Of a stretch of 64,000 nucleotides of DNA, positions 1 through 46,204 are shown in pieces. Every line of letters starts with the position of its first letter. The stretch's first letter is position 1. The notes under the pieces were generated by a model. The model made no database searches and was not told where the DNA came from. It was given only the letters and a program-made list of their open reading frames with translations. A program made the position numbers and the translations under genes. The stretch comes from a virus (taxonomy: Duplodnaviria; Heunggongvirae; Uroviricota; Caudoviricetes; Crassvirales): IMG/VR virus record IMGVR_UViG_3300034082_001032, one strand, 5' to 3'.

Positions 1-317
1 ACATGAAACTTCTCTCTTCCTCTTTCTCCTTCATATGTTAAATATATCCAACACACATCTTCTGTGAGACTGTTGAGATAGTCTCGAGCTTCTTTATATG
101 GATATACAAGAGATAGAGTGATGTTATTACCATGACTATGTAGGTAGTGAGCAATATCACTAGCTCTGTTCAAGTTTCTAATACGTCCTTCTCTGCTATA
201 GTCCTTGTTAGCAAATAACTCTCTGAGCTTGTCCCCATCTATATTTTTATAAGAAGGAAACTGGTTTGCTATTGTTGACTTACCACTATGTGGTTGTCCA
301 AAGAGTGCAATAATCAT
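1..317 (-). CDS. Adenylyl-sulfate (APS) kinase-like protein, N-terminal part; 3' end runs off the window
   Basis: Manual translation from ATG at 317..315 gives MIIALFGQPHSGKSTIANQF... (P-loop GxxxxGKST). It is followed by 'IDGDKLRELFANKDYSREGRIRNLNRASDIAHYL', which resembles the CysC 'LDGDNVRHGL..DRxENIRRxxEVA' region. The ATG overlaps the TGA of the upstream ORF (ATGA), suggesting translational coupling. Confidence 0.55.
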   Translation of the reverse strand, partial: MIIALFGQPHSGKSTIANQFPSYKNIDGDKLRELFANKDYSREGRIRNLNRASDIAHYLHSHGNNITLSLVYPYKEARDYLNSLTEDVCWIYLTYEGERGREKFH

Positions 318-1261
318 ATAGTTTTCAATATGTTATTAATGTCAAACATTTCCTCTATACTGTTGTAAGGACATTCGTGAACAGTTCCTTCAAAGGAATA
401 ATCAAAGATGTAGCTATCTATAAGCTTTGTAGTGCCAGGAGGATCTTTAGCGACAATATTATTGTGCATCTTATATCCAAAGTTGACAGGAGATGTTCCT
501 ACCCATAACACTGTAGAAGAAAGTCCCATTCCTGCTGCAGCATGTTGTAAGAAAGAATCTATTAACACACGTTTTTGAGATGTGGCAAGGATGGAGAACA
601 TTTCAAAGTTGGACATTTGTTGTGTTACATGTTCTACATTAGGAATCAGATTGGTGTTTGGTCTAGTCACCTGTATAATGTGATGAGTGTTACTATAACG
701 CTCAGCAATAGCCACAGCTACTTCATAAGGCATGTCTCTAGTCCAAGCATAAGAGAATGTACTATTAAATGAACCTCCATTAGTTTGTATTACCATTACA
801 GGTTTTTCTCTTTGCCAGTTGTATTGCAACATCTTCTGTACAGCATTGGGATGAAGCTGAGGAAGCTGTTCTTTATAAGAAACATCAAGCAGGTCACACC
901 AGTTGTGTATCAGATGCTTCTTACGCATGATGTGGTCACTTTGGAAATAAGGCTCATGACGAAATACAATAGTGTCCCTATCCTTTATATAATCATCATA
1001 GAAGTAAGAAGTGGAACCCACTCTATACACCCTGTGTATGTTAGGGTTGTTTAGGAATATCTCTGGATAGGATACCACCATAATGAGTTTTCTATCAGCA
1101 TAGCGTTCTTTCACATCCTTTATAAGAGATGTTGCTGCTATGTTCTTTCCTAACCCACCTTCGATGTGCCATACAACATACTTATTACTATCTACAGAAC
1201 GGTCTTCTAACACTGTTAGTTTTTCTTCTGCTTCTGCTTCTGTTTTATATCCTACGTTCAT
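314..1261 (-). CDS. Glycosyltransferase family 9-like (heptosyltransferase fold)
   Basis: 315-aa ORF. N-terminal 'HIEGGLGKNIAATSLIKDVKERY' matches the GT9 'GGIGDxxxxxP' loop. C-terminal 'IDSFLQHAAAGMGLSSTVLWVGTSP' matches the GT9 signature 'DTGxMHLAAAxGxPxVxLFGPT'. Confidence 0.6.
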   Translation of the reverse strand: MNVGYKTEAEAEEKLTVLEDRSVDSNKYVVWHIEGGLGKNIAATSLIKDVKERYADRKLIMVVSYPEIFLNNPNIHRVYRVGSTSYFYDDYIKDRDTIVFRHEPYFQSDHIMRKKHLIHNWCDLLDVSYKEQLPQLHPNAVQKMLQYNWQREKPVMVIQTNGGSFNSTFSYAWTRDMPYEVAVAIAERYSNTHHIIQVTRPNTNLIPNVEHVTQQMSNFEMFSILATSQKRVLIDSFLQHAAAGMGLSSTVLWVGTSPVNFGYKMHNNIVAKDPPGTTKLIDSYIFDYSFEGTVHECPYNSIEEMFDINNILKTI

Positions 1262-1264
1262 TGG

Positions 1265-2086
1265 TTATATTTTATATCCAAAATCATTAAAGAACCATCT
1301 ATAACTGTCCTCTATTATCTTACAAGCATTAGGTCCTAACACTTCACGATAATCATCCTTTACAGGTTTGAGTTCACCACGAATGACATGATCTCCAAAT
1401 ATTCCATACCACTTATCATCTTCTGTGGAGTATTGTTGAATATTTTTGAAGTCATGTTGGAAGAACGGAATCTCTAGATAGTCATAGATGCGCTTTAGTT
1501 GCGCATTAGGATCTATACACAGTTCTTCAAATTTAATAAATAGGATGTGTTGATGTGTACCAGCTACGAGTGTCTGGTATAATCGGTCCAGAGCTGGACC
1601 AATAGGAGGATTGTTGGACCACACCACCATACGCTTATCTGTGGTGGTACCTGTTAGGTTTCCCCAGTTAGCAATGTTTGTGTCCACCAAAGGGTTCTGT
1701 CTATACTTCTTCTCTAGAGAAGAATATATAGCACGGATGTCCCTAATCATGCAAATAATCTTGGGGTTGGGATCAAAGGCATGAAGAAAATCACGCTCCA
1801 TTGCCCAACCCCTAGATTTTTCCATAACATACGGACGTTCTGTTATAGCATTATAGAATCCATAGAGTCCATCTTTCAACATTCCCTTAAACCCTGCTTC
1901 CATGAGTTGTTGATCCTGTGCCTTAAACTCTAATCCGTTAGAGAAATAGTTACGGGCATTTGTGTACATCTCAAAGATGCCAGATGTAGGAGTGGAATGA
2001 ATCTCTGGATTCTGTGCTAGAATGTTTTGAATAAGGGTACTTCCAGCTCTTGGGAGAGAGCTGTTGTAGAATATCTTCTTGACCAT
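1265..2086 (-). CDS. Sulfotransferase (PAPS-dependent, Sulfotransfer_3/Stf0-like)
   Basis: 273-aa ORF. N-terminal 'SSLPRAGSTLIQNIL' matches the 5'-phosphosulfate-binding loop (PRSGST). 'CMIRDIRAIYSSLEKKY' matches the 3'-phosphate-binding RDxR...S motif. It overlaps the next ORF by 8 nt. Confidence 0.65.
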   Translation of the reverse strand: MVKKIFYNSSLPRAGSTLIQNILAQNPEIHSTPTSGIFEMYTNARNYFSNGLEFKAQDQQLMEAGFKGMLKDGLYGFYNAITERPYVMEKSRGWAMERDFLHAFDPNPKIICMIRDIRAIYSSLEKKYRQNPLVDTNIANWGNLTGTTTDKRMVVWSNNPPIGPALDRLYQTLVAGTHQHILFIKFEELCIDPNAQLKRIYDYLEIPFFQHDFKNIQQYSTEDDKWYGIFGDHVIRGELKPVKDDYREVLGPNACKIIEDSYRWFFNDFGYKI

Positions 2087-2111
2087 TATGTTTGTTGGTT
2101 TTAATGTTCAA

Positions 2112-2462
2112 TTAGAATGGATTGAAGTCCTTTGGATTTCCTTCAATAAACTCAACAGCTTCTGTTCCTACTTGCTCACAAATAGTGCCAAGAATTACAG
2201 TGTCATCAATACCCCACTCTTGAATGTAAGGAGCACCCAAGTTGAGGCTACCGCCCAACAGACGTTTGAAGGTTTCCATGTTTCCTTCAGCATCAAATGT
2301 AGCAGTACCATAGATGAGACTAAAGCTCACTTCTTCAGCACCTAAGCGATAAGGAGATGCTACCGCTGTTAGATAGTCAGCTGTTTTAACATCATAGGCA
2401 AAAGGAGATTCCATTTCAGGAATTTCAGCAACGGGATTGATCTTTGCAAAAAGCATTTTCAT
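2112..2462 (-). CDS. Hypothetical protein (116 aa), possibly a small sugar-modifying accessory enzyme
   Basis: Intact ORF with the same orientation and packing as the flanking glycan-modification genes. No motif recognised with confidence. Confidence 0.35.
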   Translation of the reverse strand: MKMLFAKINPVAEIPEMESPFAYDVKTADYLTAVASPYRLGAEEVSFSLIYGTATFDAEGNMETFKRLLGGSLNLGAPYIQEWGIDDTVILGTICEQVGTEAVEFIEGNPKDFNPF

Positions 2463-2468
2463 AGCTAA

Positions 2469-3068
2469 TTATTGTTTTAAGTTTTTAAATAATAAGTCCA
2501 ATTGGAAGATGATGCCGTTAGAACAATGGTAGTCAACAATATCTACAATATAAAACCCAAGGTCTATCATCTTGTTCACCACAGCATCCATGAGAGGTGC
2601 TCCCTGATTGTATTCAAGTAAGGACACCTCCATCATTACAAAGGTAGTATTTTTTATTGTATTCTCACCACCTCTAATTATGTCTAACTCAGAACCTTGT
2701 ACATCTAGTTTAATGAAATCTATAGGAGCTCCATCAAAGTAGTTGCAATCATCTAGGCGCTTTGTAATCACTGTCTGTGTTTTACCCTCTGTGTACCAAT
2801 TGGTGTTCTCCTTATACAAGGAACTTCCTGTACCAATTGGATTTACATCCTCTATATGTAACTCAGCTGTTCCATTTTTATCAGACAGAGCTACAATTTC
2901 GTAGGGCTTACCCAGCAGTCTTAGATAGGGCTCACAGTTTTTGTTAGCCTCTATCATAACTATTTGACACTCAGGGAATTTATAGTAGAGTTCTTTAGTA
3001 AAAGAACCTACATGTGCCCCTATGTCTAAAGCTCTTTTGGGGTCAATGTGTCTAAATAGTTTGTCCAT
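2469..3068 (-). CDS. FkbM-family SAM-dependent methyltransferase
   Basis: 'RALDIGAHVGSFT' (SAM-binding GxGxG-like) and 'IDFIKLDVQGSELDII' are characteristic of FkbM-domain O-methyltransferases (Methyltransf_21). Confidence 0.65.
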   Translation of the reverse strand: MDKLFRHIDPKRALDIGAHVGSFTKELYYKFPECQIVMIEANKNCEPYLRLLGKPYEIVALSDKNGTAELHIEDVNPIGTGSSLYKENTNWYTEGKTQTVITKRLDDCNYFDGAPIDFIKLDVQGSELDIIRGGENTIKNTTFVMMEVSLLEYNQGAPLMDAVVNKMIDLGFYIVDIVDYHCSNGIIFQLDLLFKNLKQ

Positions 3069-3937
3069 TGGTTTATTCTATTGTCCCAGCTCCACTTAGG
3101 AGCATATGTCTTCACTTGTTCTTCAAGGTGCATTCCGTTTCTCACAGCTTCTATTTCTTTCTTAAGAATGGAAGCAAACACCTCAGCATGTTTATCCTTA
3201 TCCATCAGATAGGGATAGATAGTTGCCCATCCTTCTGTAGTTTCAGGCAGTGCTCCTATGTTACTTGTTACCACCCTTAGACCAGCTGACAGAGCTTCTA
3301 TCACAGCTATACAAGAGGTTTCCTCAAATGTACAGGGATAGGCTAAAATGTCAAAGCTGGAAAGTTCCTTCCTCAGCTCCTCGTTAGGAATAGATCCTCT
3401 GTATACAATTCCTTCTGTGTTTAGACAGGCGTTATATAAGTCTGTATATTTAGGATCTTCTGTAGAAGCAAAGTCTTCTCCATATATTTTACAGCTAGAG
3501 AAAACATGTAGTTCACAGTTTTTAAGCTTAAGTATATCCCATGCCTTTAGAAGAACATCAAGTCCTCTGAAGGGTGTGGACGTATAACAAAGCTTCACTA
3601 TATCTCTTTCTCCTGGTTTACGTGGTTCTACACCAACACAAGCGTTCTTTATAACAGAAGTTTTGTATCCAGGAATGTTGAATAGTTTCCTATAATATTC
3701 TGATTGCCAGTGACTTACAAAAACAAACTGATCAATTGCTTCAACGTTCTTAGGATCTGTCAACCATTGTACAGCCTGTTGGTCATAGCTCAACTGGTTC
3801 CAATAGATGGTAGGTTTTTCAAAGTCAGCATCTCCTATGTAGTTGAATATAGACCATTTGTCTTTATATTCTTCAGGCAGTCTTCTCATGAGTTCATTAT
3901 ACATAAGCTCTGTACCGCCCATTGGTTTATCAAACAT
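3026..3937 (-). CDS. Glycosyltransferase, GT-B fold (GT4 / Glycos_transf_1 family)
   Basis: C-terminal 'YPCTFEETSCIAVIEALSAGLRVVTSNIGALPE' is the classic E-x7-E retaining GT4 motif. Confidence 0.7.
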   Translation of the reverse strand: MFDKPMGGTELMYNELMRRLPEEYKDKWSIFNYIGDADFEKPTIYWNQLSYDQQAVQWLTDPKNVEAIDQFVFVSHWQSEYYRKLFNIPGYKTSVIKNACVGVEPRKPGERDIVKLCYTSTPFRGLDVLLKAWDILKLKNCELHVFSSCKIYGEDFASTEDPKYTDLYNACLNTEGIVYRGSIPNEELRKELSSFDILAYPCTFEETSCIAVIEALSAGLRVVTSNIGALPETTEGWATIYPYLMDKDKHAEVFASILKKEIEAVRNGMHLEEQVKTYAPKWSWDNRINQWTNYLDTLTPKEL

Positions 3938-4595
3938 ATCCGTGTTTTGTTATAAAGGTATTAAAATCACCCTTGAATTTCTTTGTTCCTATGTGGTTGA
4001 GTGTAATGGTTGGATCTAACCACACCTTATATCCTAAGGATTTCCACTTGTTACAAAGGATGTAGTCTTCAGATATAAGATCACCATTCTCCACCTTTAT
4101 GTCACACACCATTCTATGCTTTTCACCTTCACTCATATACTCATCACTTATATCCCAAAGCTTCTCCAATGCAAATCTACTTATTTTGAGGAAGCCAGTA
4201 CCTACACCATCCACTTCTATAAGCTTTTCATCCTTAGACTTCTTAAGAGTTTTGTCCATCAACTTCACTGTATACCCCTCATTCTTATCACTCTTTTTTA
4301 CAAGAGCCCCACCTATAAATGGTTCTGGTCTATCCAAAAGCCTGAAAAACCATTCTGGTTCCCATTCAGCATCAGAATCTATAAAGAACAGATCGTCATA
4401 CCCTCCCTCCATAGCAAGTCTAAATAGACTGTTTCTAGCTCTTTGGATGAGACTGTCATAGCTTGTATAGATGGCGTGGACAAATATTTCCTTTTCATAA
4501 GCCAGTTTAACCGTACCCAAGAGCGAGTTTGCAAACCAAACATCTATCCTTCCATCATATGAGGGTGTACCTATGAGCACTCTACGCATAGGCAA
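3930..4595 (-). CDS. GT-A fold glycosyltransferase (DxD type)
   Basis: 'VLIGTPSYDGR' at the N-terminus, a 'FFIDSDAEW' DxD motif and 'EDYILCNKWKSLGYKVWLDP' resemble GT2/GT25-like GT-A enzymes. It overlaps the upstream GT4 start by 8 nt. Confidence 0.5.
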   Translation of the reverse strand: MPMRRVLIGTPSYDGRIDVWFANSLLGTVKLAYEKEIFVHAIYTSYDSLIQRARNSLFRLAMEGGYDDLFFIDSDAEWEPEWFFRLLDRPEPFIGGALVKKSDKNEGYTVKLMDKTLKKSKDEKLIEVDGVGTGFLKISRFALEKLWDISDEYMSEGEKHRMVCDIKVENGDLISEDYILCNKWKSLGYKVWLDPTITLNHIGTKKFKGDFNTFITKHGYV

Positions 4596-4607
4596 ATATA
4601 TGTAGTT

Positions 4608-7600
4608 TTATTTATTTCCACAACTTTTTTCTAGATTTTCCACTCTTCCATCTAGCTCTTGTATAGCTTTGATAATTGGTGCTATGAGTTCTTCATATGT
4701 TACACGATAGGCATCTTTATCTTCATCATGTCCCAGAGCATCAAACTTTACTCCTAGCTCATCTATAGCAGCTTTCACATCCTGAGCTATCACTCCATAA
4801 TGTTCTCTTACACCAGACAGCGTACCATCTTTTGTTCCATACTCAAACCCACACTCCTTAACATAGTTATCACGGTTGTCCCAATTGTAGGTTACAGGCT
4901 TAATCTTCTTAATGAAGTTGAGACCTAAACCATCTGGAAGAGGTTTAATATTTGTCTTATCACGACAGTCTGACACTACAGACCAAGCTGCATATACGCA
5001 GTTGCAAACGTTGTTGTTTGCGTTACCCCATACGGTGTGATTATCTATTGCAGAAGTTGTAGCGTTGTCTCCTATAACAATATTATTATCTGTACCAGCA
5101 TAAAAGTTAGCAGCAGAACTATTACCAATTGCAATATTATACTTACCGTTGCTATTAAATTGCATTGCAAACTGCCCAACGGCAATATTTGCTCTACCTA
5201 CATCATTAGAATTTAAAGCTCTATCTCCAACAGCTGTATTCCAAAGACCAGTAGTGTTGAGATTTAAAGCGCCTTTACCTACTGCAGTATTTCCTGCACC
5301 TGTTGTATTACAGCGTAATGCACAGAATCCCATTGCTGTGTTGCCGTAACCAATAGTGTTACAGGAGAGCGCTAGGTTTCCAGTAGCGGTGTTTTGATAT
5401 CCAGTAGTATTAGCTTTTAATGCGCAAAATCCTACTGCTGTATTATCGGATGCTGTATTTGCTTGTAGAGAATAAAACCCTACAGCAGTATTACCGCCTC
5501 CAGTAACGTTTTGTTGTAGTGATGAATATCCAACAGCAGTGTTATTTATTCCTGTTGTATTAGTAAATAGAGCTGTTCTACCAAATGCAGAGTTTCCTGT
5601 GCCTGATGTGTTTGAATATAATGTTCTGTCACCTACTGCTGTTAAATACCTGCCTGTATTTACTCTTAAAGCGCTTCTACCTATTGCTACGTTATTACAG
5701 CCTGTTGTGTTACATCTAAGAGCTTCAACACCTATAGATATATTATTGACTGCAGTTGTATTTTTTTCTGAAGCAAGTCTACCAATAGCTATATTGAGAG
5801 TTCCTGTAGTGTTACTTGCTAATGCTAAAGAACCAATAGCAGTATTGTCACTTCCTATTGTATTTGCTTCTAATGCACAGACTCCTACTGCTACGTTGTC
5901 TATACCAGTAGTAGTACTTCTTAATGCACAAAAACCAACTGCTGTGTTGTTTGAGGCTGTGTTTGAATAGAGGGCTTGAAGACCTACTGCTGTATTATTA
6001 CTACCTACAGTATTAGAATTTAAGGCATTTACACCTACAGCAGTATTACAAACACCTGTTGTGTTACTAAACAATGCATTAACACCTAATCCTGTGTTTT
6101 GGTTTCCTATTGTATTGCAAACTAATGCTCTACAGCCCAACGCTGTATTGTATGCACCAGTAGTATTACTTCTTAATGAGCAGAAACCTACTGCTGTATT
6201 GTTTGATGCTGTGTTACATCTTAACGAGTCAACACCTATAGCAGTATTAGAAGTACCAACAGTATTAGCAAACAAACTAGCAACACCCACCGCGGTATTA
6301 TTAGCACCTGTGGTATTATAAAGTAATGAGTATCTGTTTATTGCTGTGTTATTACCGCCTGAAGTGTTATTAACTAATGAGCAAAAACCTATAGAGACAT
6401 TTGAACCACCAATTGTATTAGATAATAAAGCATTACCTCCTATTGCTACATTACTAGTACCAGTAGTATTACTTCTTAATGCACAGAACCCGACTGCTGT
6501 GTTGTTTGATGCTAAATTACATTCAAGAGCTCTTGTTCCAAGAGCAGTATTACACGCTCCAACTAAGTTTTGTGTAAGTGCTTCTCTACCAATTGCTACG
6601 TTGTTAACACCTGTAGTATTTTTATACAGTGCTGTTTGACCCATAGCGGTGTTATTAGCACCTACTGTGTTATTTGCTAATGCTGAATTACCAAAAGCAT
6701 TGTTGTTGTATCCTGTTGTATTATTGAAAAGAGCTCCATGACCAAACGCTGCATTATTTATACCTACTGTATTAGAAAATAATGCTTGTAAACCAACAGC
6801 CGTGTTTGAAGTACCTGTTGTATTACTCCTTAAAGCTTGTAAACCAACTGCTGTGTTATTTGATGCTGTATTGCAAAGTAATGCACTTCTGCCTAAGGCT
6901 GTATTGTTAAGACCTACAGTATTAGAATATAAAGCATCTACACCTACAGCTGTATTAGCGGCACCTGTCGTATTATTTTTAAGTGAGCTTACACCAATAG
7001 TAACGTTATATGCACCTGTTGTATTACTTCTTAATGCACAAAAACCGACTGCTGTATTGGCTGATGCTGTGTTGCAATAAAGTGATTGATGGCCAATAGC
7101 AGTATTGTTAACACCTGCTGTATTGCATAATAACGATTGTAAACCTATAGCAGTATTGCATGTTCCTGACAAGTTATATTGTAATGCACCTCCGCCCACT
7201 GCAATATTTCCTACACCTATTGTATTTTTTGTTAATGCTCTTACACCCACTGCTGTATTACTAATACCAGTAGTGTTACATGCTAAAGTAAAATATCCGA
7301 CAGCAGTGTTATATGATGCTGTATTTTTATACAACGAACCCTGACCAATAGCTGTATTACGATTTCCTATTAAATTATTCTGTAAAGCATTAGCACCGAT
7401 TGCTATATTTCGTTCACCAGATGTGTTTGAAGATAATGCATCGGTACCTATAGCTGTATTAACTGTACCAGTTGTATTACTTCTTAATGCACAGAACCCG
7501 ACTGCTGTGTTGTTTGAGGCTGTGTTGGCAAACAAAGCGTTTCTACCAAGAGCAGTGTTATTAGTACCTACAACGTTAGTGTATAAGGCAAGTGTACCGA

Positions 7601-10600
7601 CTGCTGTGTTATTAGTTCCAGTCGTATTATTTTCTAGTGCACTTGTTCCTATCGCAACGTTAGCACAGGCAGTAGTGTTTTTTCTTAATGCATAAGGACC
7701 TAAAGCTATGTTACTGTTTCCTGTGGTATTACTTCTTAACGCACAGAATCCAACTGCTGTATTGTTTGATGCTGTGTTTTGACGAAGGGCAAAGAAACCC
7801 ATCGCTACATTACTGTTTCCTGTTGTATTATACCTAAGTGCTGAAGATCCAACTACAGTGTTGTAACATCCTGTTGTGTTACAGCAGGAAGAAAGTGTAC
7901 CTATAGACGTGTTATCAAGTCCTCTTGTGTTACATTGTAGTGTTCTGTACCCAACAGCTGTATTACTATATCCTGTGGTATTACTAAGAAGTGTATTAAA
8001 TCCAACTGCTGTATTAAATACTCCTGTTGTATTATTTCTTAATGCGCTAGCACCTACTGCTGTGTTGGATGATGCTGTATTTAAACAAAGTGCATGTACA
8101 CCTAATGCTATGTTATTACCTCCTACAGTATTACATCGTAGTGCGTTTACTCCTACTGCTAAGTTACAATTACCGGTTGTATTACCTATAAGTGCATAAA
8201 ATCCTAATGCTGAGTTGTAGGTGCCTATAGTATTAGAAGCTAGAGAACTTCTTCCTATAGCTGTGTTATAAGTACCAGTAGTATTGCTTCTTAATGCACA
8301 GAATCCGACTGCTGTGTTGTTTGAGGCTGTGTTACAGTATAAAGCATTAATTCCAATAGCTAAATTGCAATTACCAGTTGTATTACAAAACAAAGCGTTT
8401 AATCCAACTGCTATATTATTTGTACCTACTGTATTATACCTTAATGTACTGGCACCTATTGCGGTATTCGTTGCACCTGATGTATTATTAAGTAAAGATA
8501 AACCTCCTATTGCTACGTTACTAGCACCTACTGTATTGTTTGATAAAGTTAGCCTACCTACTGCTGTGTTGTCTGTACCAGTAGTATTATTTCTTAACGC
8601 ACTAAATCCTAATGCTGTGTTATTTGATGCTGTGTTTAAGTTTAATGCTTCTCTACCAACAGCTGTATTGCTGTTTCCAACAGTATTACATATTAAAGCA
8701 CCTTGACCAACAGCAGTATTTGAAATACCGGTTGTATTTTTATAAAGAGATTGATGACCTACAGCTGTATTACCTGTTCCTGAAGTATTGGCTCTTAGGG
8801 CTTGGGAACCCATAGCTGTGTTAAAAGTACCTATATTGTTATTTCTTAAAGCATATAATCCAACAGCTGTGTTTTGTACTCCTGTAGAATTGTATTGTAG
8901 AGCATTAGTTCCTACTATTGTGTTAGAAGCAATACTTCCACCACCCTTACCAACATCAACACCACTGCCACCAACTAGGTTGACACATAGGTCACCGTTA
9001 GTCTTTTGACATGTTTTACTATCGCCAATTGTTGTAGATGATGTAAACTTCACTATATATTCTGGCGTACCAGCTACAGCTACAGATGTACCACTTGAAC
9101 CTGCTGTTCCTGAAGAGCCACTAGTTCCTGTTGTTCCAGAGGTTCCAGATGTGGCACTGCTTCCGCTTGTTCCACTAGTTCCTCCTGAGCCATTAGTGCC
9201 TGAAGTGCCTGCAGTTCCGCTAGTTCCACTGCTTCCTGCTGTTCCTGAGCTACCAGCAGTGCCAGAAGATCCAGAAGTTCCTGATGTACCACCAGTACCG
9301 TTTGTTCCACTTGTACCACTAGATCCAGACAATCCGCTAGTTCCAGAAGTACCTGTTGTACCGCTTGTACCTGTAGTGCCAGATGTACCACTAGTTCCTG
9401 TAGTGCCGCTAGAGCCTGATGTACCAGATGTACCTGGACTACCTGCTGTACCAGCTGTACCAGATGATCCTGAGCTACCAGAGCTTCCACTAGATCCACT
9501 TGATCCAGCACTACCGTTTGTACCAGATGTGCCAGATGTACCAGAGGTGGCAGAAGATCCACTAGAACCGCTTGATCCTGATGTGGCTGATGTTCCACTT
9601 GAACCAGATGTACCTGTGGTACCACTTGTACCAGATGTTCCACCTGTTCCATTGGTGCCACTTGTACCTGAGCTTCCAGAGGTTGCACTTGTACCGCTTG
9701 TACCAGAAGAACCTGCTGTTCCAGATGTGCCTGTAGTTCCACTGGTTCCGCTTGTTCCTCCAGACCCATTAGTTCCTGAAGTGCCTGAAGAGCCAGAGGT
9801 ACCACTAGTTCCTGTGGTGCCCGAAGTACCCGTAGTTCCAGATGTTCCACTAGTAGCGCTGGTTCCAGATGTACCAGGACTGCCAGATGTACCAGATGTA
9901 CCTGTAGTTCCTGAAGACCCACTTGATCCTGAGGTACCTGTAGTGCCCGAAGTGCCTGCTGTTGCAGACGTACCACTTGTACCTGATGATCCACTTGAAC
10001 CATCTCCCCCTGTAGCACCATCAAGGTTTACTTGCCATGTGCTATATGTACCAGACCCTGTAAGCCTAAATACAATAAAGCTCAATGAGCCAGTTGCTGG
10101 GTTATAAGATGTAACCTCAGCTTCTACGTGATTGTTAGCATCGTAGGCAACAATAATAGACTGAGCAATTGTATATGCTAATCCTGTTCCCACTGTAATA
10201 GTTCCCGTTGTACCTACAGCTCCTAATGTATATGTTGATGTTGATGTTGTGGCAAATCTATCACCACTCAAACCTGAAGATCCAGATGTACCTGTTGTTC
10301 CTGCTGTACCAGAAGTACCTGATGTAGCACTTGTTCCACTAGTTCCGCTAGTTGCACTTGTTCCTGAAGTGCCCCCAGATCCATTTGTGCCACTAGTACC
10401 ACTCGTTCCTGATGTGCCTGTGGTACCACTAGTTCCTCCAGTACCATTAGTTCCACTTGTTCCGCTGGTTGCAGATGTTCCAGAAGTTCCACTAGACCCT
10501 GACGTTCCACTAGTACCAGTTGTTCCTGATGTTCCAGCGGTACCAGAAGTCCCTGTAGTTCCACTACTTCCTGATGTTCCACTAGTTCCACTACTACCAG

Positions 10601-12380
10601 CTGAACCATTTGTTCCAGATGTACCACTCGTACCAGCAGTTCCTGATGTACCAGTAGTTCCACTTGAGCCAGAAGATCCTGAGCTTCCAGATGAACCACT
10701 TGTAGCACTCGTACCACTTGTACCAGATGTTCCTGCAGAACCGTTAGTTCCAGAAGATCCTGATGAACCTGAAGTGGCAGATGTACCTGATGTACCGCTT
10801 GTTCCTCCTGAACCATCCGTACCAGAGATGCCAGATGTTCCTGATGTTCCACTAGTTGCAGAGGTTCCTGAGGTACCTGTAGTACCACTAGTTCCTGATG
10901 TTGCACTAGTTCCATCTGTTCCTGATGAGCCAGATGTACCGCTTGTACCACCACTACCATCAGTACCAGATGAACCACTTGTTCCACTGGTGCCACTAGA
11001 CCCACTAGTTCCTGTTGTACCACTAGTTCCACTAGTTGCTGACGTACCTGATGTACCACTTGTACCCCCTGTTCCATCTGTAGCACTAGTTCCGCTTGTA
11101 CCACTTGTTGCAGAAGTGCCAGAGGTTCCAGACGTACCTGTACTACCAGAGGTTCCAGAACTACCAGAGGTTCCTGTCGTTCCAGAAGTACCCGTGGTAC
11201 CAGAGGTTCCTGTAGTGCCTGAGGTTCCTGATGTTCCTGATGTAGCACTTGTTCCACTACTACCACTAGTTCCTGTAGTGCCACTTGTACCACTAGATCC
11301 AGAGGTAGATGAGCTTCCTGAACTTCCTGATGTACCTGTTGTACCAGAGCTACCTGAGGTTCCACTTGTTCCAGAACTTCCTGCAGTTCCAGATGTTGTA
11401 ACTGGAAAAATTGCTAGAGCACCATCTCCTCTAATATATTCAGATGTATTACCTGTTGCAACAATATTAATTGTTCCAAAGCTTGTAATTGGAGGAGTGG
11501 TTACAGAAAATGCAGGAGGAACTGCTGCCTGTACACTTGTAACTGTACCAACATTAAAAGTTCTATCTGCAGTGAGATCTCTAGTGACACCATTGATTGT
11601 AATAGTTCTAGAGTCTGGAACTGGTGTATATCCCAATAATCCAATAATGTCTCCAGCTGTCAAGGGAGCAGCGGAGGTTACCAATCCTTTTGCGTTTACA
11701 GCAAACTTTAGAGGTGTATTTGATCCATACACATTACTGTTAACTGTAGCAAGGGTGGTTGTCAGAGGAACTCCTGTGTTACCAACACCAGAAACATCTC
11801 CTTGGAGAATGATGATGTCTGATGGGAGATTGATTGGTACTGGTGTAATGTTTGTTACTAATCCTTTACCGTTCACTGTTACAACAGGAACAGTTGTAGA
11901 AGATCCAAATGTTCCTGGAGAAACATTCACAGTGGCTAGTGTAAATGGAACACTGCCTGGACCAGATGCTGTACCATCACCAGTGAGGTTGGTGATGTAA
12001 TTACCAGCAGGCTGGTAAGATGTTGAATCTAAAGATCCATCTCCTTTAACAAAATCATTAGAAGTTCCACCTGTTGTAATGAAAGCAGCAGTTTCAATAG
12101 ACCCTGTAAGGGTAAATGTATATCCTGCACTATTGATTACTGTATCTTCTATAAGAGCACCCCCTAGTTTTACTGGTTGACCAGGAGAAAGTTGAATGAT
12201 TCCGTTGTCAAATATATACCCAATAGTAGCATCTTGAAACTTAGCATCGATCTTTTCGAGTGCAGTTTGCAAGTTGTCATTAGTATTAATGCCTGTATAT
12301 ATCAAATTCTCACCTTCGTAAAATACGCAAGTGGCATTTAATATAACAGGACAAGGAGTTGCTTCACAACCAACAATCAT
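4608..12380 (-). CDS. Giant mosaic tail fibre (2590 aa): N-terminal Cys-motif anchor, collagen-like G-S/T triplet blocks, ~70 x 17-aa YadA-head-like repeats, C-terminal peptidase-S74 intramolecular chaperone domain
   Basis: N-terminus 'CEATPCPVILNATCVFYEGENLIY..NDNLQTALEKID' is shared with four other ORFs. There are long runs of GTSGTSGSSGTTG triplets. The repeat unit is 'NTAVGxxALxxNTxGxx' (Hep_Hag-like). The C-terminus 'WSVVSDCRDKTNIKPL...VTYNWD...GVIAQDV' matches the S74 endosialidase-type chaperone 'SDxRxK'. Confidence 0.85.
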   Translation of the reverse strand: MIVGCEATPCPVILNATCVFYEGENLIYTGINTNDNLQTALEKIDAKFQDATIGYIFDNGIIQLSPGQPVKLGGALIEDTVINSAGYTFTLTGSIETAAFITTGGTSNDFVKGDGSLDSTSYQPAGNYITNLTGDGTASGPGSVPFTLATVNVSPGTFGSSTTVPVVTVNGKGLVTNITPVPINLPSDIIILQGDVSGVGNTGVPLTTTLATVNSNVYGSNTPLKFAVNAKGLVTSAAPLTAGDIIGLLGYTPVPDSRTITINGVTRDLTADRTFNVGTVTSVQAAVPPAFSVTTPPITSFGTINIVATGNTSEYIRGDGALAIFPVTTSGTAGSSGTSGTSGSSGTTGTSGSSGSSSTSGSSGTSGTTGTSGSSGTSATSGTSGTSGTTGTSGTTGTSGTTGTSGSSGTSGSTGTSGTSGTSATSGTSGTSATDGTGGTSGTSGTSATSGTSGTTGTSGSSGTSGTSGSSGTDGSGGTSGTSGSSGTDGTSATSGTSGTTGTSGTSATSGTSGTSGISGTDGSGGTSGTSGTSATSGSSGSSGTNGSAGTSGTSGTSATSGSSGSSGSSGSSGTTGTSGTAGTSGTSGTNGSAGSSGTSGTSGSSGTTGTSGTAGTSGTTGTSGTSGSSGTSGTSATSGTSGTNGTGGTSGTTGTSGTSGTSGTNGSGGTSGTSATSGTSGTSATSGTSGTAGTTGTSGSSGLSGDRFATTSTSTYTLGAVGTTGTITVGTGLAYTIAQSIIVAYDANNHVEAEVTSYNPATGSLSFIVFRLTGSGTYSTWQVNLDGATGGDGSSGSSGTSGTSATAGTSGTTGTSGSSGSSGTTGTSGTSGSPGTSGTSATSGTSGTTGTSGTTGTSGTSGSSGTSGTNGSGGTSGTSGTTGTSGTAGSSGTSGTSATSGSSGTSGTNGTGGTSGTSGTTGTSGSSGTSATSGSSGSSGSSATSGTSGTSGTNGSAGSSGSSGSSGSSGSSGTAGTAGSPGTSGTSGSSGTTGTSGTSGTTGTSGTTGTSGTSGLSGSSGTSGTNGTGGTSGTSGSSGTAGSSGTAGSSGTSGTAGTSGTNGSGGTSGTSGSSATSGTSGTTGTSGSSGTAGSSGTSVAVAGTPEYIVKFTSSTTIGDSKTCQKTNGDLCVNLVGGSGVDVGKGGGSIASNTIVGTNALQYNSTGVQNTAVGLYALRNNNIGTFNTAMGSQALRANTSGTGNTAVGHQSLYKNTTGISNTAVGQGALICNTVGNSNTAVGREALNLNTASNNTALGFSALRNNTTGTDNTAVGRLTLSNNTVGASNVAIGGLSLLNNTSGATNTAIGASTLRYNTVGTNNIAVGLNALFCNTTGNCNLAIGINALYCNTASNNTAVGFCALRSNTTGTYNTAIGRSSLASNTIGTYNSALGFYALIGNTTGNCNLAVGVNALRCNTVGGNNIALGVHALCLNTASSNTAVGASALRNNTTGVFNTAVGFNTLLSNTTGYSNTAVGYRTLQCNTRGLDNTSIGTLSSCCNTTGCYNTVVGSSALRYNTTGNSNVAMGFFALRQNTASNNTAVGFCALRSNTTGNSNIALGPYALRKNTTACANVAIGTSALENNTTGTNNTAVGTLALYTNVVGTNNTALGRNALFANTASNNTAVGFCALRSNTTGTVNTAIGTDALSSNTSGERNIAIGANALQNNLIGNRNTAIGQGSLYKNTASYNTAVGYFTLACNTTGISNTAVGVRALTKNTIGVGNIAVGGGALQYNLSGTCNTAIGLQSLLCNTAGVNNTAIGHQSLYCNTASANTAVGFCALRSNTTGAYNVTIGVSSLKNNTTGAANTAVGVDALYSNTVGLNNTALGRSALLCNTASNNTAVGLQALRSNTTGTSNTAVGLQALFSNTVGINNAAFGHGALFNNTTGYNNNAFGNSALANNTVGANNTAMGQTALYKNTTGVNNVAIGREALTQNLVGACNTALGTRALECNLASNNTAVGFCALRSNTTGTSNVAIGGNALLSNTIGGSNVSIGFCSLVNNTSGGNNTAINRYSLLYNTTGANNTAVGVASLFANTVGTSNTAIGVDSLRCNTASNNTAVGFCSLRSNTTGAYNTALGCRALVCNTIGNQNTGLGVNALFSNTTGVCNTAVGVNALNSNTVGSNNTAVGLQALYSNTASNNTAVGFCALRSTTTGIDNVAVGVCALEANTIGSDNTAIGSLALASNTTGTLNIAIGRLASEKNTTAVNNISIGVEALRCNTTGCNNVAIGRSALRVNTGRYLTAVGDRTLYSNTSGTGNSAFGRTALFTNTTGINNTAVGYSSLQQNVTGGGNTAVGFYSLQANTASDNTAVGFCALKANTTGYQNTATGNLALSCNTIGYGNTAMGFCALRCNTTGAGNTAVGKGALNLNTTGLWNTAVGDRALNSNDVGRANIAVGQFAMQFNSNGKYNIAIGNSSAANFYAGTDNNIVIGDNATTSAIDNHTVWGNANNNVCNCVYAAWSVVSDCRDKTNIKPLPDGLGLNFIKKIKPVTYNWDNRDNYVKECGFEYGTKDGTLSGVREHYGVIAQDVKAAIDELGVKFDALGHDEDKDAYRVTYEELIAPIIKAIQELDGRVENLEKSCGNK
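5210..8870 (-). repeat. About 70 tandem 51-nt (17-codon) repeats encoding 'NTAVGxxALxxNTxGxx' beta-roll units inside the fibre gene
   Basis: The periodicity is visible in the protein. The off-frame plus-strand ORFs (5149..8815) translate to recurring 'PTAVLxxPVVL' shadows. Confidence 0.8.
9080..11400 (-). repeat. Two blocks of collagen-like Gly-X-Y triplet repeats (X,Y mostly Ser/Thr) in the fibre gene; highly repetitive DNA
   Basis: Protein GTS/GSS/GTT triplets for about 600 residues. The shadow ORFs 9151..10107(+), 10249..12000(+), 9080..10024(-) and 10268..11365(-) are all low-complexity VPLVP/QVQLV frames. Confidence 0.8.
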
Positions 12381-12408
12381 TATATATAAATTTTATTATA
12401 TGAACTTA

Positions 12409-12591
12409 TTAGGATTCTAAAATCCTCAATCTTTCCTCAAGCTCCCTAACCTTATCATTCACCTTTTCCAATGCAGTTTGAATGTTGTCATTTGAGTTAA
12501 CATTTATGTATATTAAATTAGCACCTTCGTAGAACACGCAGGTGCTATTTAATAATACTGGACATGAATATGTTCCACAAGTGACATTCAT
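12409..12591 (-). CDS. Stand-alone fibre N-terminal anchor-module protein (~60 aa) with a short coiled-coil tail
   Basis: The internal Met of the tracked 103-aa ORF gives 'MNVTCGTYSCPVLLNSTCVFYEGANLIYINVNSNDNIQTALEKVNDKVRELEERLRILES'. This is near-identical in pattern to the first 45 aa of the 2590-aa fibre. The upstream part of the tracked ORF is the frame-shadow of the Thr-rich neighbour. Confidence 0.4.
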   Translation of the reverse strand: MNVTCGTYSCPVLLNSTCVFYEGANLIYINVNSNDNIQTALEKVNDKVRELEERLRILES

Positions 12592-12595
12592 ATCA

Positions 12596-12853
12596 TTATG
12601 GTGCAGAAGTAGTAGTAGTGGTAGTTGTACTAGAGCTACTAGTTGTAGTGCTAGTTGTACTGGTACTAGTACTTGTGCTTGTGCTTGTGCTAGTAGTAGT
12701 TGTACTTGGAAGAGCTGCATTTATTTTAGCAAGAATATCTTCAAGTGTATCTCCAGGTTGAGCTCCAATATTAGCTAGATAGTCACCATCATAAATGACA
12801 CAAAGGGCATTTACTAGTGTAGCACAGGTTGGACAAATTGTAGCAATACGCAT
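12596..12853 (-). CDS. Fibre N-terminal anchor-module protein (85 aa) ending in a poly-Thr/Ser linker
   Basis: 'MRIATICPTCATLVNALCVIYDGDYLANIGAQPGDTLEDILAKINAAL' is followed by 'PSTTTTSTSTSTSTSTSTTSTTTSSSSTTTTTTTSAP' and then a stop. This is the third tandem copy of the N-module within 500 bp. Confidence 0.45.
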   Translation of the reverse strand: MRIATICPTCATLVNALCVIYDGDYLANIGAQPGDTLEDILAKINAALPSTTTTSTSTSTSTSTSTTSTTTSSSSTTTTTTTSAP

Positions 12854-12935
12854 AGTTGTAAAATTAGTGATTATTAATGATTTTCAATGAGTTACGAAAA
12901 AAAATTGGATATAATATAGCTATACATGTACCATT

Positions 12936-15900
12936 TTATAAGGTAACTGGTCTAGCTTGTGACTGTGCTCTGATACCAAGATCTTTAGCCAACTCTGGAT
13001 AGAACATAGGAAGCATACCAGCAGCTTGGTTACTTATAGGGAATGATTTCATTAGGTATTTAATCACCTTGGTTTTCTCTACAAGTTCCTCATCACCTAC
13101 AGCCATACCAAACATTTCAGTATTAAAGTTCATTATGAGTTTCTTGAAGTTATTCAAATAACTAATTGATGGGAATATACCAGAAGAAACAAGACTAGTT
13201 AAACTAGTAGGATCATAGAAATAAGCCAACTCGTCCTTAATCTTATCAGCAGCTCTGAGCATAAACTTGTATTGATTCTTAACCGCTGCATCTTCATCAT
13301 CGTCTGGGGCATTTGCTTTCAGTCCAATATAGAGAGCATATATAGTTAACATGAACATCAGATCCACCATTTGTCCTTTGATGTTCTTTCTAGTAAGGTC
13401 AATAAACTGAGACTGAGTCATTTCCAAATCCTTACCTGTTTCAGCTTTATACTCTTCTCTCTTCTTTTCATAAAGGTTTCTCATGAATTCCACACCTTTA
13501 TCATTAGCCTGCACAGAGTTGATTAGGTTGTTAATTGATCCAACCACGTCTTCAGATATCACCCTGAAAACATTTCTCATTCTTCCCCATTCATAAGCAT
13601 CAGACGCAGAATTGTATTTAAGATTACCAAGACGTACATCCACCAATCTTGGAATCCAGTTTTTAAATAACATAAAAGATTTTCCATATATGTTCATGTT
13701 TATGTTTCTTACATCATCCTCTGTAAGGTTACCAAGAGCATCTTTACTAACTTGTTGTACCTTTCTTCTAAGTTCAATTACAGATTGTGATTTTCTATCT
13801 ACTCCAGGTATAACAAGTTCTCCATTCTTTATTTCTCCAAGTTTAAGAACACTCTTAGTTTCCAATAGTTCCTTAACATCTTTCTCAAACTTGTTAGCTC
13901 TATCCTTTCTTTCTTCAGCACTACCAGAATACATATCCTTGTATTCAGGTTGTTCTCTGAGATATTCTCTAACGTTAATCACCCTGTCACCATCTACAAT
14001 TGTATTTCTAAGGAATGTAAAGAAGTTAGCAGACTGAACAAACATGTCAGAGTTTCTCATAAGCACCATCATGAACTCTTGAATGTTCTCTTGACTTAAC
14101 TTACTGAGAGACAACTTTTTAGCAAGCTCTCTATTATAACTATCTGTAAAAGGAAGGAAGTATTCAATTGAACGAATCATTTTGTCCCTATCCTCACCAC
14201 GAGTCATTTTATTTCCTGCCATCCAAAGTTCTGTAGATAAATAGTCTTGTCTGGTGAAATACGTTCCAGCATTAATCATAGATTGGAAGTTACCACCTAA
14301 CAGGTTTGAAAGAGCAGATAGAGGATTAAGACCTAACGCGTTGAGTTGGAATGTGTTATTCAATTGGTCAATCACCTTGTTGATACTAATCTGTCTTCCA
14401 GATAAGTTCTCTGGGAATATCTTAATTCCAAGTTTCTTATTAGCTCTTTCTCCAAAATCACTCAGGCTACCAAGAAGTTGATCAAAGCTTTCACTTTGTA
14501 TAAATTTCTGTCCATATATAATGGACTTCATCATATCCTCAACAAGCTTAGTGTTCTCGTTATTATTTGCTGTGTATTCAAGTTTACCATCTTTATATTT
14601 GGTTTTACCAAATGTAGATGTGGCAATAGCTTTCTTGTTCCTTTCTGTATTCACAAGAGCCCTAGCCTGAGCTTCAATATCACTTACATATTTATATTTA
14701 ATAGCCATTTCATTATACAAAGCCATGTTCCTGAACAGGTCTGTGCTTAGCTCTCCTTCAATCTCTCTAGTAAAATATGTAGGAATTGTATCAATTAGTC
14801 TACCTGTAAGAGGATCTGTTTTACCAAATCCTACATCTCCTTCATCAATAGAAACACTTCTTAAAAATTGTTCACCAAGACTAATTTTTCCACCAAAGAT
14901 GATTTTCTCCATTAGTCCTTTTCTAACAAATGGTAAGAATATCCTAGCTTCAGCCTTGCTGATATATCCTATCTCTTGATAGTATTCATTTCTTTCTTTG
15001 ATATAATTGTAGAAATCAAATGCAGCCTTGTTCTCAGGTTTCGTAAGTTCTTTCCATTCAGCAGATTCCCATTTATCTCTCTTTGGAAACTTCTTTGTAA
15101 GATCGTACAAAAACCAACCAGGTGATTCAGATGTAGATGTGTTATAAAGATTCTGAACTTGTGCCTTCTCTCTAGAAATCTCTCTATTGACTTCATCTTC
15201 AGAACCAACTCTTGCCTTATTATCAATTCTCTCAAGTTCTTCTGCAAGCTTTTCTTGAAGGAACTTGTTGTATTCAACCCCATCAATATTGTCTCTAACC
15301 CAACTAAAGTCTTTATCAGTTGATTTAGACTTTAGTTCTTTATAAAAATCACGTTGAAACTCATCAATAAGTTCGTTCTTATCTTTCTTCTTAAGAATAT
15401 CAAAGTAGTTCTTATTGTTTAATCCTTTAGCCTGAGCCCATTTATCGTAGGATTCTTTGAGGGCAGCTAGCTTTTTAGTTTCATCTATAGTGTCCATAGA
15501 TGCAAACCCAAATGCTCTGTTTGCTTTTTTGTACAAAGTTTCAAGAGCTTTCAATTGTAAACTTGATGTAGATACAAACCATTTAGTTATACCCTTGATA
15601 ACTTTCTCTGGAGAGAGGTAGTTATCAACTCCTTCAGATCCAGCAACAAAATCATTTACAAATTCTCCTGATATATCATCAAGATTTGAATCAAGTTCTT
15701 GTGCTAATTCTGTCACTTCACGAAGCTCTTCTCTAAGTGCTCCATCTTCTTCAGATAGTTCTCCCTGGAACAAAAACTTCAAGTCTGTGTTTAATGTAAT
15801 GTAAGCAATCAATGAGTTCTTAGCTGTTTCCAATTCCTCATAGAACTTACTAATATCTTTCTGTTCAAAATCTTTTACATCTTTACCAGCCCAGTTTTCC

Positions 15901-29123: not shown

Positions 29124-29126
29124 TAT

Positions 29127-31709: not shown

Positions 31710-31796
31710 GTCTGATTAAGTTAGCAAATGTAATTTAAAAAGTAATACCAACCAAGAGCAATAACTACTTTCATTAAGTTGGTATAACTGAGTTGA

Positions 31797-34988: not shown

Positions 34989-35009
34989 AATATGTTATTG
35001 TACAGGTTT

Positions 35010-42574: not shown

Positions 42575-42576
42575 TG

Positions 42577-43545: not shown

Positions 43546-43548
43546 AGT

Positions 43549-46003: not shown

Positions 46004-46144
46004 AACTCAATAATTTGGTTAAAATTACAGTAAAGGTATAAATGTTTTTGAAATTCTCCAAATTTATTTAACTGAACAAGTTATCTATTGTAATCAAATT
46101 GATTATAAATAAAACCCCCACCCTAGAAAGGGCAGGGGAAACAC

Positions 46145-46182
46145 CCTGTAAAACCAACAAAACAGGGTTTTTAATATTAACG
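46145..46182. terminator. Intergenic hairpin 'CCCTGT-aaaaccaacaaaa-ACAGGG' followed by TTTTT; an imperfect GC hairpin (cccctgccc/gggtgggg) sits just upstream and is followed by a T-run on the minus strand
   Basis: Seen directly in sequence. It lies between the stop of gene 46205..46540(-) and the start of gene 44750..46003(-). It is one of few GC-rich spots in an AT-rich genome. Confidence 0.35.
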
Positions 46183-46204
46183 AAACATTTTACTACATAT
46201 CTAT

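Follow-up and report, generated by a model that had tools for sequence, protein, structure and literature searches.

The 64,000-nucleotide (nt) stretch of DNA analyzed here, referred to below as the window (IMG/VR virus record IMGVR_UViG_3300034082_001032, Crassvirales), contained a single uninterrupted ATG-to-stop open reading frame (ORF) of 2590 amino acids (aa) at 4608..12380 on the minus strand. This gene very probably encodes the giant subunit of a homotrimeric fibre of a crAss-like podovirus, a very long fibre carried on the virion. From the N-terminus to the C-terminus the protein consisted of a docking motif and shaft, a collagen-like block, a knob, a second collagen-like block, a connector, a domain of about 76 repeat units, and a Peptidase_S74 domain. 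The domain order and the main predictions of an earlier reading of this DNA, made from its letters alone (the original prediction), stood up to a residue-by-residue check of the map, and the two Gly-X-Y blocks that it had placed at about 11400..10270 and about 10020..9080 were found at 11390..10257 and 10019..9084. The modules were located as follows.

12231..12380, minus strand: N-terminal Cys-containing docking motif of about 50 aa (MIVGCEATPCPVILNATCVFYEG...ALEKIDAKFQ), 60-85% identical in 30 related loci
11391..12230, minus strand: β-rich proximal shaft, aa 51-330, in a module with 618 homologues
10257..11390, minus strand: collagen-like block 1, aa 331-708, 126 G-T/S-S/T triplets in a single register, Pfam Collagen
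10020..10256, minus strand: inter-collagen knob of 79 aa, aa 709-787, with 70-85% identical copies in relatives
9084..10019, minus strand: collagen-like block 2, aa 788-1099, 104 triplets, position 1 with 98 G and 6 A, two Pro
8925..9083, minus strand: collagen-to-repeat connector, aa 1100-1152, two Cys, conserved in L004, L009, and L012
5034..8924, minus strand: about 76 tandem 17/16-aa units (NTAVGxxALxxNTTGxx), aa 1153-2449, predicted YadA-like β-roll
4972..5033, minus strand: last residues before the predicted cleavage site, aa 2450-2469, ending ...NANNNVCNCVYAAWSVV, consensus 'WSxxSDxRxK' in the homologue alignment
4608..4971, minus strand: Peptidase_S74 intramolecular chaperone, aa 2470-2590 and stop codon, dyad S2470/K2475

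Five residues (Thr, Gly, Ser, Asn, and Ala) made up 69% of the whole protein, which was matched by PHROG tail-spike and virion-structural families (PHROGs 23837, 4636, and 6002) with E values down to 1e-245. Such a repetitive gene could have been produced by the collapse of reads during assembly, and this explanation was rejected. Exact DNA repeats reached 44 nt at their longest across the gene and did not exceed 24 nt within the triplet blocks, and Tandem Repeats Finder identified degenerate arrays only (62-88% matches). The 51-nt repeat units had a mean nucleotide identity of 57%, with the same amino acid encoded by the same codon in only 46% of cases and Ser encoded by both AGY and TCN. This divergence of the DNA and codons indicates that read collapse is of no concern and that the periodicity is kept at the protein level. 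In addition, the identical protein was recorded on four contigs (for example in NCBI GCA_043533795.1, contig JBFDND010001300.1, 76 kb), and independent IMG/VR contigs shared the architecture of the fibre. The original prediction had been staked on the presence of an S74 domain and on the repeats being genuine, and both were found. Two antisense ORFs (10249..12000 and 9151..10107, plus strand) were also considered as genes and rejected as low-complexity 'VPxVPLVP...' shadows of the triplet codons. In a scan of 1..13200, promoter and terminator sites were no more frequent than in shuffled sequences.

The two collagen-like blocks together contained 230 triplets (126 and 104, 690 residues), with no register shift in either block. 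The first position was occupied by 114 Gly, 11 Ala, and 1 Ser in block 1 and by 98 Gly and 6 Ala in block 2, for a total of 212 Gly, 17 Ala, and 1 Ser; X was mostly Thr and Y mostly Ser. Among the 690 residues there were two Pro (both in block 2, none in block 1), five Asp, one Arg, and no Lys or Glu. A Ser/Thr-rich triplet region of about 600 residues without Pro had been described earlier, which was close in character and slightly off in its length and in the absence of Pro. Pfam Collagen (PF01391) matched the whole protein with an E value of 1e-66 in nine stretches. The spacer containing YDANNHVEAEVTSYNP was present between the blocks as predicted (aa 709-787). This knob had no Pfam match. 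It recurred within the triplet regions of at least eight loci, with 70-85% identical copies in L026, L025, L022, L024, L014, and L027. Conservation was also seen on the C-terminal side of the second block, where aa 1100-1169, which include the connector, were 54-78% conserved in L004, L009, and L012.

The repeat domain that follows was made up of 76 units, 62 of 17 aa, 13 of 16 aa, and one of 18 aa, extending over approximately aa 1153-2449 (nt ~8924..5034). The repeats first described as about 70 17-mers at 8870..5210 were thus real, somewhat more numerous, and spread slightly wider. Their consensus was N-T-A-V-G-x-x-A-L-x-x-N-T-T-G-x-x, with a super-repeat in which 16-mers ('...NTASN') followed by 'NTAVGFCALRSNTTG' recurred every 4-7 units. 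Thirty-eight of the 48 Cys residues of the protein were in this region, almost all of them at the variable unit positions 7, 11, and 16/17. Paired Cys had been proposed, and a recurrent C-x11/12-C arrangement was found (C11 of a 16-mer 'CNTASN', then C7 of 'NTAVGFCALRSNTTG'), though it accounted for only 8 of the 37 intervals.

Resemblance of these repeats to the YadA head was borne out at the level of the modelled fold and not at the level of sequence profiles. In an AlphaFold2 (AF2) monomer model the repeats formed a single-chain β-roll with one rung per repeat. The best fold matches were all adhesins, and generic β-helices scored below them:

3pr7, UspA1, score 17.0
7o23, BpaC, score 16.2 (262 residues aligned, 28% identity)
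9u93, CbpF, score 14.9
1p9h, YadA, score 13.3
3s6l, BoaA, score 11.7

Pfam Hep_Hag and YadA_head gave no match at E ≤ 0.1 with the whole protein or at E ≤ 1 with the repeat segments. The model suggests that the repeat region works like the head of YadA and other trimeric autotransporter adhesins (TAAs) by virtue of its fold, while falling outside the Pfam family. It is not itself an autotransporter because it has no anchor: the C-terminus is the S74 domain, and there was no YadA_anchor match.

More than 7800 proteins matched aa 2140-2590 at E ≤ 1e-3, a lower bound since the search was saturated. Family PF26696 was already assigned to many of the homologues. Homologues with both 17-mers and S74 were found in cultured phages, including Methylophilales phage Venkman (gp55), Pelagibacter phages HTVC111P/112P, SPO1-like phages of Bacillus, and Prochlorococcus phage P-SSM2 (PSSM2_298), where they were annotated as tail fibres or spikes. 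Some, perhaps many, of the copies on Bacteroidota chromosomes carried the sorting domain of the type IX secretion system (PF18962; e.g. P0162, P0168, and P0171), which suggests that the same adhesin module is also used as a secreted bacterial surface protein. Judged from these matches, the 17-mer and S74 module is widespread, and every part of the fibre is of a known kind.

The match of Pfam PF13884 (Peptidase_S74) to aa 2470-2543 exceeded the cut-off of 22 bits, scoring 48.2 bits when the whole protein was searched and 52.9 bits when the C-terminal segment was used. The predicted chaperone was therefore present, starting at nt 4971 rather than 5180. The S2470/K2475 dyad was at the extreme C-terminal end, and in an alignment of 40 homologues D2471 and K2475 were invariant and S2470 was conserved in at least 90%. 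The spacing of Ser and Lys was the same as that of Ser1264/Lys1269 in T5 pb1. A phmmer search of the C-terminal 330 aa against PDB sequences returned nothing useful, and only the profile of the 40 homologues reached chaperone structures, matching the sequences of the MyRF ICA and the S16 fibre chaperone. Comparison of folds likewise matched chaperones: the endoNF chaperone (3gw6), MyRF (7dc3), and T5 pb1 (4uw8). In T5 pb1 the Thr1263-Ser1264 bond is cut, with Ser1264/Lys1269 as the dyad, and the Ser leaves with the chaperone, as it does in K1F (PMC4690869). By analogy with this cutting N-terminal to the catalytic Ser, autocleavage is likely to be at V2469|S2470 rather than at the S|D bond originally suggested, and the released fragment is predicted to be 121 aa long (120 if the cut is after the Ser) rather than about 150 aa.

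The N-terminal end of the fibre was conserved independently of what follows it. The docking motif of about 50 aa, which contains three Cys, was 60-85% identical in 30 related loci whose fibres differ greatly in length. The N-terminal module (aa 1-330) had 618 homologues at E ≤ 1e-3, mostly proteins of 300-580 aa on viral contigs of 110-125 kb. The shaft had no match to Pfam or to PDB sequences, and a phmmer search of the PDB with all 330 residues returned nothing useful. In the 115-kb relatives a 536-aa fibre with the shared N-terminus occupied the corresponding position, after ORFs of 4333 and 1696 aa. The head and tail fibres of ΦcrAss001 dock via their first 26-58 residues, and their hubs are stabilized by disulfides (PMC10172136). 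Short N-terminal docking with disulfides of this type would fit the three-Cys motif found here.

In IMG/VR this N-terminal module headed fibres ranging from about 600 to more than 5000 aa. One relative (L012) encoded a fibre of 2927 aa with about 445 triplets, 40 17-mers, and S74. Another, merged from L009 and L005 (IMGVR_UViG_3300005805_000058, ~42235-57867), encoded 5210 aa, in which 298 triplets were divided among four blocks, the knob occurred three times, there were about 190 17-mers, and S74 was located at residue 5091. This would be an exceptionally long phage fibre protein. Fibres with triplets and without 17-mers were found in L014, L015, L025, and L026, and L029 had S74 without either triplets or 17-mers. 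These comparisons make the fibre one product of a shared set of interchangeable modules: the modules are already known, and the fibre is new in how they are combined and extreme in its size. It already recurs in unannotated viral contigs, and its less ordinary features are the composition of the collagen-like stalk and the conserved, unexplained transferase cassette that accompanies it. The series of 2590, 2927, and 5210 aa, which share an anchor and a chaperone and range from 230 to ~445 triplets and from 40 to ~200 rungs, could be used to study how fibre length is tuned.

Two mini-ORFs immediately upstream of the fibre gene carried the same docking motif.

12596..12853, minus strand: 85-aa mini-ORF, docking motif and a 36-aa pure Ser/Thr tail, conserved in L012 and L009, where it also immediately precedes the fibre
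12409..12591, minus strand: 60-aa mini-ORF, combining a short helix with a docking motif that shares 60% identity with the N-terminus of the fibre

Related mini-ORF sites were present in L012 (9775-9990), L009 (9781-9990), and L026 (9163-9678), and the poly-Ser/Thr version was conserved. The mini-ORFs could be minimal 'stub' fibres, plugs of docking sites, or substrates for glycosylation. A weak fourth copy of the motif (46328..46447, minus strand; 40% over 40 aa), with stop codons in the frame examined, lay in the gap between an exonuclease-like gene (44750..46003) and a tail-fibre-like gene (46560..47603).

Analysis of the genes upstream of the fibre identified the phage as crAss-like on the basis of its structural proteins, a point absent from the original prediction. 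The predicted capsid, ring 1, ring 2, and muzzle proteins matched Pfam families above the cut-off (PF23898, 6e-27; PF24228, 4e-9; PF25702, 3e-17; PF25731, 4e-39).

57811..59841, minus strand: terminase
55226..57811, minus strand: portal
51745..53298, minus strand: capsid protein (Pfam Crass_capsid)
44022..44750, minus strand: ring protein 2 (Pfam CrAss_Ring_2)
42577..43545, minus strand: ring protein 1 (Pfam CrAss_Ring_1)
37877..42574, minus strand: muzzle protein (Pfam crAss_MUZ)

The hosts of the Crassvirales are Bacteroidota, and the host of this phage is probably a member of that phylum. A megablast search with 19.6 kb of the window found no match among cultured phages, and a search with the capsid protein matched only Leptolyngbya phage Lbo-JY46 (26% identity). 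Between the muzzle gene and the fibre (12936..36353, minus strand) were large ORFs of 447, 1063, 860, 3839, and 1555 aa, for which there was no Pfam match and one weak PHROG match only; judging by where they lie, they may encode cargo proteins of the crAss type or virion RNA polymerase proteins. The last of these, of 1555 aa, was 56-89% identical in several relatives and about 28-32% identical in others. An Mre11/SbcD-like 'DNA repair exonuclease' (phrog_704, 3e-47) was encoded at 44750..46003 (minus strand), amid the virion structural module.

A possible route of assembly and a function can be proposed from this architecture. The S74 domain would trimerize first and template the folding of the adjacent β-structure, by analogy with the K1F endosialidase and T5 pb1. 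Folding and the registration of the chains would then spread N-terminally through both Gly-X-Y segments, because a collagen helix starts to form at its C-terminal end and zips up from there (PMC11923368), with the conserved knob acting as a re-nucleation node. Self-cleavage at V2469|S2470 would subsequently release the chaperone, and the mature protein would have about 2469 aa. Taking the textbook values of 0.286 nm for each residue of a triple helix and about 0.48 nm for each rung of a β-roll, the mature fibre would be about 230-250 nm long, including ~108 and 89 nm of triple helix and ~37 nm of β-roll. Anchored by its N-terminal peptide, it would present the YadA-like β-roll as a long, multivalent adhesin surface with which the phage would first and reversibly contact its host, probably a member of the Bacteroidota.

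Several observations weigh against this interpretation. The N-terminal 330 aa were modelled too poorly by AF2 for interpretation (predicted local distance difference test (pLDDT) 62.8, predicted template modelling score 0.25), and Foldseek gave no hit at E ≤ 0.001. The assignment of the β-roll comes from an AF2 monomer with a mean pLDDT of 75.9, falling to ~50-60 in its second half, and the repeats (747 aa searched by phmmer) had no sequence-level match to Hep_Hag or to any TAA in the PDB at E ≤ 10. No receptor-binding, lectin, or enzymatic tip domain was detected in the fibre, and the β-roll itself is likely to be the adhesive surface, as in the heads of TAAs. The main difficulty is presented by the stalk. 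Pro and charged-pair (salt-bridge) triplets have been reported to stabilize bacterial and phage collagens (PMC3368898, PMC11923368), and the triplet blocks lacked both of these known non-glycan stabilizers, being rich neither in Pro/Hyp nor in Lys-Gly-Asp/Glu pairs. The triplet segments might then be flexible Gly/Ser/Thr linkers instead of a rigid triple helix, in which case the estimate of the fibre length would be wrong.

It is rather improbable, in our judgement, that the Gly-X-Y regions are disordered tethers of this type, a floppy leash carrying the β-roll head, with the triplet period a by-product of amplified DNA units of 9-27 nt. Tandem Repeats Finder identified nested periods (9, 18, 27, 36 nt, and longer), which are consistent with such amplification. 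Peptides without Pro and charge do not form helices unaided, and (Gly-Pro-Thr)10 is a random coil unless it is glycosylated (PMC11923368). However, the register was intact over 126 and 104 triplets, and the only replacements at position 1 were 17 Ala and 1 Ser. The DNA copies of the triplets were only 63-88% alike and used a mixture of synonymous Gly, Ser, and Thr codons, Ser again by both AGY and TCN, which indicates selection for Gly at every third residue at the protein level. Furthermore, the register and the preference for G-T-S persisted in diverged relatives, and both blocks were flanked by putative trimeric domains. The position of the fibre on the virion is a separate question, as ΦcrAss001 has both kinds of fibre and, by analogy, placement on either the tail or the capsid would be possible. 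Placement on the capsid is viewed as unlikely, if a little less so than the tethers. The trimeric and dimeric head fibres of ΦcrAss001 are anchored in hexon pockets by residues 1-38 and 1-58 (PMC10172136), and here three consecutive ORFs share one N-terminal motif of ~50 aa. Against this, all annotated homologues of the distal module in cultured phages were tail fibres or spikes, and the PHROG categories of the fibre were those of the tail.

Six co-directional, tightly packed, and overlapping genes followed the fibre gene, the first of them starting 12 nt past its stop codon.

3930..4595, minus strand: 221-aa weakly GT2-like protein (phrog_1574; Pfam Glycos_transf_2 E 0.02, and 0.008 for the L004 orthologue, both below the cut-off)
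3026..3937, minus strand: GT4-type glycosyltransferase (Glyco_trans_1_4, 8e-12; Glycos_transf_1, 3e-11; phrog_2170)
2469..3068, minus strand: FkbM-family methyltransferase (Methyltransf_21, 2e-21; TIGR01444, 8.5e-20)
1265..2086, minus strand: sulfotransferase of the type using 3'-phosphoadenosine-5'-phosphosulfate (PAPS) (Sulfotransfer_3, 3e-18; NCBIfam NoeE, 1e-6, below the cut-off)
314..1261, minus strand: 315-aa protein without assigned function, always beside the sulfotransferase (no Pfam or PDB match)
1..317, minus strand: N-terminal ~105 aa of a protein resembling adenosine-5'-phosphosulfate (APS) kinase, cut by the window edge (L004 orthologue: Pfam APS_kinase, 5e-13)

Neither the 221-aa nor the 315-aa protein had an informative match in Pfam or the PDB. 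The closest solved chains to the sulfotransferase were protein-tyrosine sulfotransferases (E 3e-4). The linkage of this cassette to fibre genes was investigated by searching IMG/VR with the GT4 and sulfotransferase proteins, which yielded 17 contigs. Where upstream sequence was present, the cassette directly followed a 17-mer/S74 fibre in L047-L053 and L056, with one intervening gene in L054, and in L060 and L061 (sulfotransferase 52-54% identical) a 17-mer ORF ended just before the sulfotransferase gene. The sole exception was L059, in which no 17-mer ORF of at least 400 aa was found upstream. Transferase genes and a structural gene were thus linked, with the cassette directly following 17-mer fibres in at least 10 viral contigs. 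Three of the cassette-linked fibres (L054, L056, and L061) had no triplet block, and no cassette was found in the 2.8-6.5 kb available downstream of the triplet-rich fibres of L015, L016, and L026 (6.5 kb for L015, 2.8 kb for L026). The sulfotransferase and the 315-aa protein, in L014 together with the APS kinase, also followed the fibres of L014 and L029, which lack 17-mers. No glycosyltransferase or other cassette gene was adjacent to the 17-mer fibres of the cultured phages Venkman and P-SSM2. Because the cassette occurs after fibres without triplets and cultured homologues lack it, its linkage is confined to one broad lineage and, within that lineage, is with the distal, adhesin-bearing part of the fibre instead of the collagen stalk highlighted in the original prediction. 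A tie of the cassette to the collagen block was considered and found unsupported, since the cassette follows triplet-free 17-mer fibres and was not found downstream of triplet-only fibres. These comparisons do not single out the collagen block as the potential glycosylation platform of the original prediction. No paper describing a fibre-linked sulfation cassette in phages was found in the literature searches made here.

The cassette most likely acts on the adsorption step, either by decorating the fibre or by altering the glycan that the fibre recognizes. These two alternatives are about equally likely, and both are put forward tentatively. If the cassette decorates the fibre, the GT2-like and GT4 proteins would attach sugars in the cytoplasm, the FkbM protein would methylate the glycan, and the sulfotransferase would sulfate the glycan (or Tyr) with PAPS supplied through the phage APS kinase. 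The targets would be Ser/Thr or the ~70 N-x-S/T sites of the fibre, along with the poly-Ser/Thr mini-protein, and the result would be a glycan that stabilizes a Pro-free triple helix and gives an anionic, mucin-like fibre. The arrangement of the genes (same strand, 12 nt from the fibre stop codon, overlapping), the position of the cassette after 17-mer/S74 fibres in the loci listed above, and the absence of a flippase or lipid-carrier gene from the cassette are all in line with decoration, as are the conserved mini-ORFs with an anchor and pure Ser/Thr tails beside the fibre. Glycosylated Thr is a known stabilizer of the triple helix in Pro-poor collagen (PMC11923368), and a passage of PMC11256854 that cites Freeman 2023 gives a precedent in mycobacteriophages, in which virion proteins are glycosylated by phage-encoded glycosyltransferases. 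The relationship of the sulfotransferase to protein-tyrosine sulfotransferases points the same way, though this similarity was weak (22-23 bits) and NCBIfam points to NoeE, a carbohydrate sulfotransferase. The mismatch between the cassette and the triplets in both directions means that collagen stabilization cannot be the general role of the cassette. In addition, the cultured-phage 17-mer fibres have no adjacent glycosyltransferase, and most of the cassette loci come from one phage lineage, and therefore part of the linkage is inherited synteny.

With no better a chance of being correct, the cassette may instead modify the glycans of the host envelope, for example the receptor of the fibre, leaving the fibre itself unmodified and blocking superinfection or the trapping of progeny on debris. 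That the cassette is linked to the receptor-binding module, and not to the collagen stalk, is in line with such a role, and GT4, FkbM, and NoeE-like enzymes are typical of polysaccharide and lipopolysaccharide pathways. The placing of receptor-modifying genes beside tailspike genes is an established general pattern, as with the O-antigen-modifying genes of temperate enterobacterial phages. However, the cassette included no membrane-associated, flippase, or polyprenyl-phosphate transferase gene and was located at the end of a late structural operon, and no integrase or lysogeny gene was seen among the ORFs screened, which were not all of those in the window.

Whichever role applies, the conserved pairing of this type of fibre with glycosyl-, methyl-, and sulfotransferases and an APS kinase is a concrete lead, suggesting that a phage virion, or else its receptor, may be modified with sulfate. 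The stalk, without either of the features thought to hold bacterial and viral triple helices together, is a clean test case for stabilization by glycans or by other means, and the fibre adds to the diversity of environmental crAss-like phages, whose adsorption apparatus is poorly known. The most far-reaching interpretation is a doubtful one: that a crAss-like lineage carries fibres hundreds of nanometers long, with a Pro-free, uncharged G-T-S stalk and a Cys-rich β-roll, that are glycosylated, methylated, and sulfated by a dedicated cassette with its own APS kinase. If this were true, the fibre on the virion would resemble a sulfated mucin or proteoglycan, with glycosyl-Thr/Ser taking the place of hydroxyproline in a viral collagen.

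Parts of this fibre can be compared with several known systems. Ser-rich-repeat adhesins are glycosylated by cytoplasmic GT4 enzymes such as GtfA, to which the cassette GT4 had no specific similarity. Bacillus anthracis BclA and the cuticle collagen of Riftia are likewise fibrous surface proteins rich in hydroxy-amino-acid repeats with glycosyltransferase genes nearby. In contrast to these three systems, glycosylation of the present fibre is hypothetical, and the cassette tracks the β-roll module rather than the triplets. Collagen-like phage and prophage fibres of the E. coli EPclA type share Gly-X-Y segments flanked by trimerization domains in a virion fibre. In EPclA, stability comes from Pro at about 50% of X positions and from charged residues, which make up about 22%, whereas X and Y are almost exclusively Thr and Ser in the present fibre, whose 690 triplet residues include 2 Pro and about 6 that are charged. 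The combination of collagen with a C-terminal S74 domain has already been reported in the fibres of polinton-like viruses and virophages, in polinton-like viruses in proteins of up to 3.9k aa (PMC3368898, PMC12220804).

The distal half of the fibre resembles both TAAs and other S74 fibres. Classical YadA repeats have a period of ~14 residues. UspA1, BpaC, YadA, BoaA, and CbpF have a β-barrel membrane anchor and a neck or stalk that the phage fibre does not have, and the fibre is distinguished from them by being phage-borne, by its 17/16-residue period, by its S74 end, and by the abundance of Cys at positions 7, 11, and 16/17. The fibres of cultured phages and the 'tail fiber domain-containing proteins' of Bacteroidota share the repeat and the chaperone (31-43% identity over 88-99% of the last 690 aa), but those proteins are 400-1100 aa long, with few Cys, no collagen block, another N-terminus, and no adjacent transferase cassette. 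A C-terminal intramolecular chaperone is shared with the K1F endosialidase, the L-shaped fibre protein pb1 of T5, the phi29/GA-1 appendage, and the S16 long tail fibre. Upstream of it these proteins have a triple β-helix, bullet domain, or sialidase in place of the predicted ~76-rung YadA-like β-roll, and the present fibre is about twice the length of pb1 (1396 aa). ΦcrAss001 (gp21, gp22, and gp29) shares the crAss-like virion type and the idea of a short N-terminal docking peptide with disulfide-stabilized hubs, although the gene order differs, with the fibres in the present phage following the giant cargo-like ORFs.

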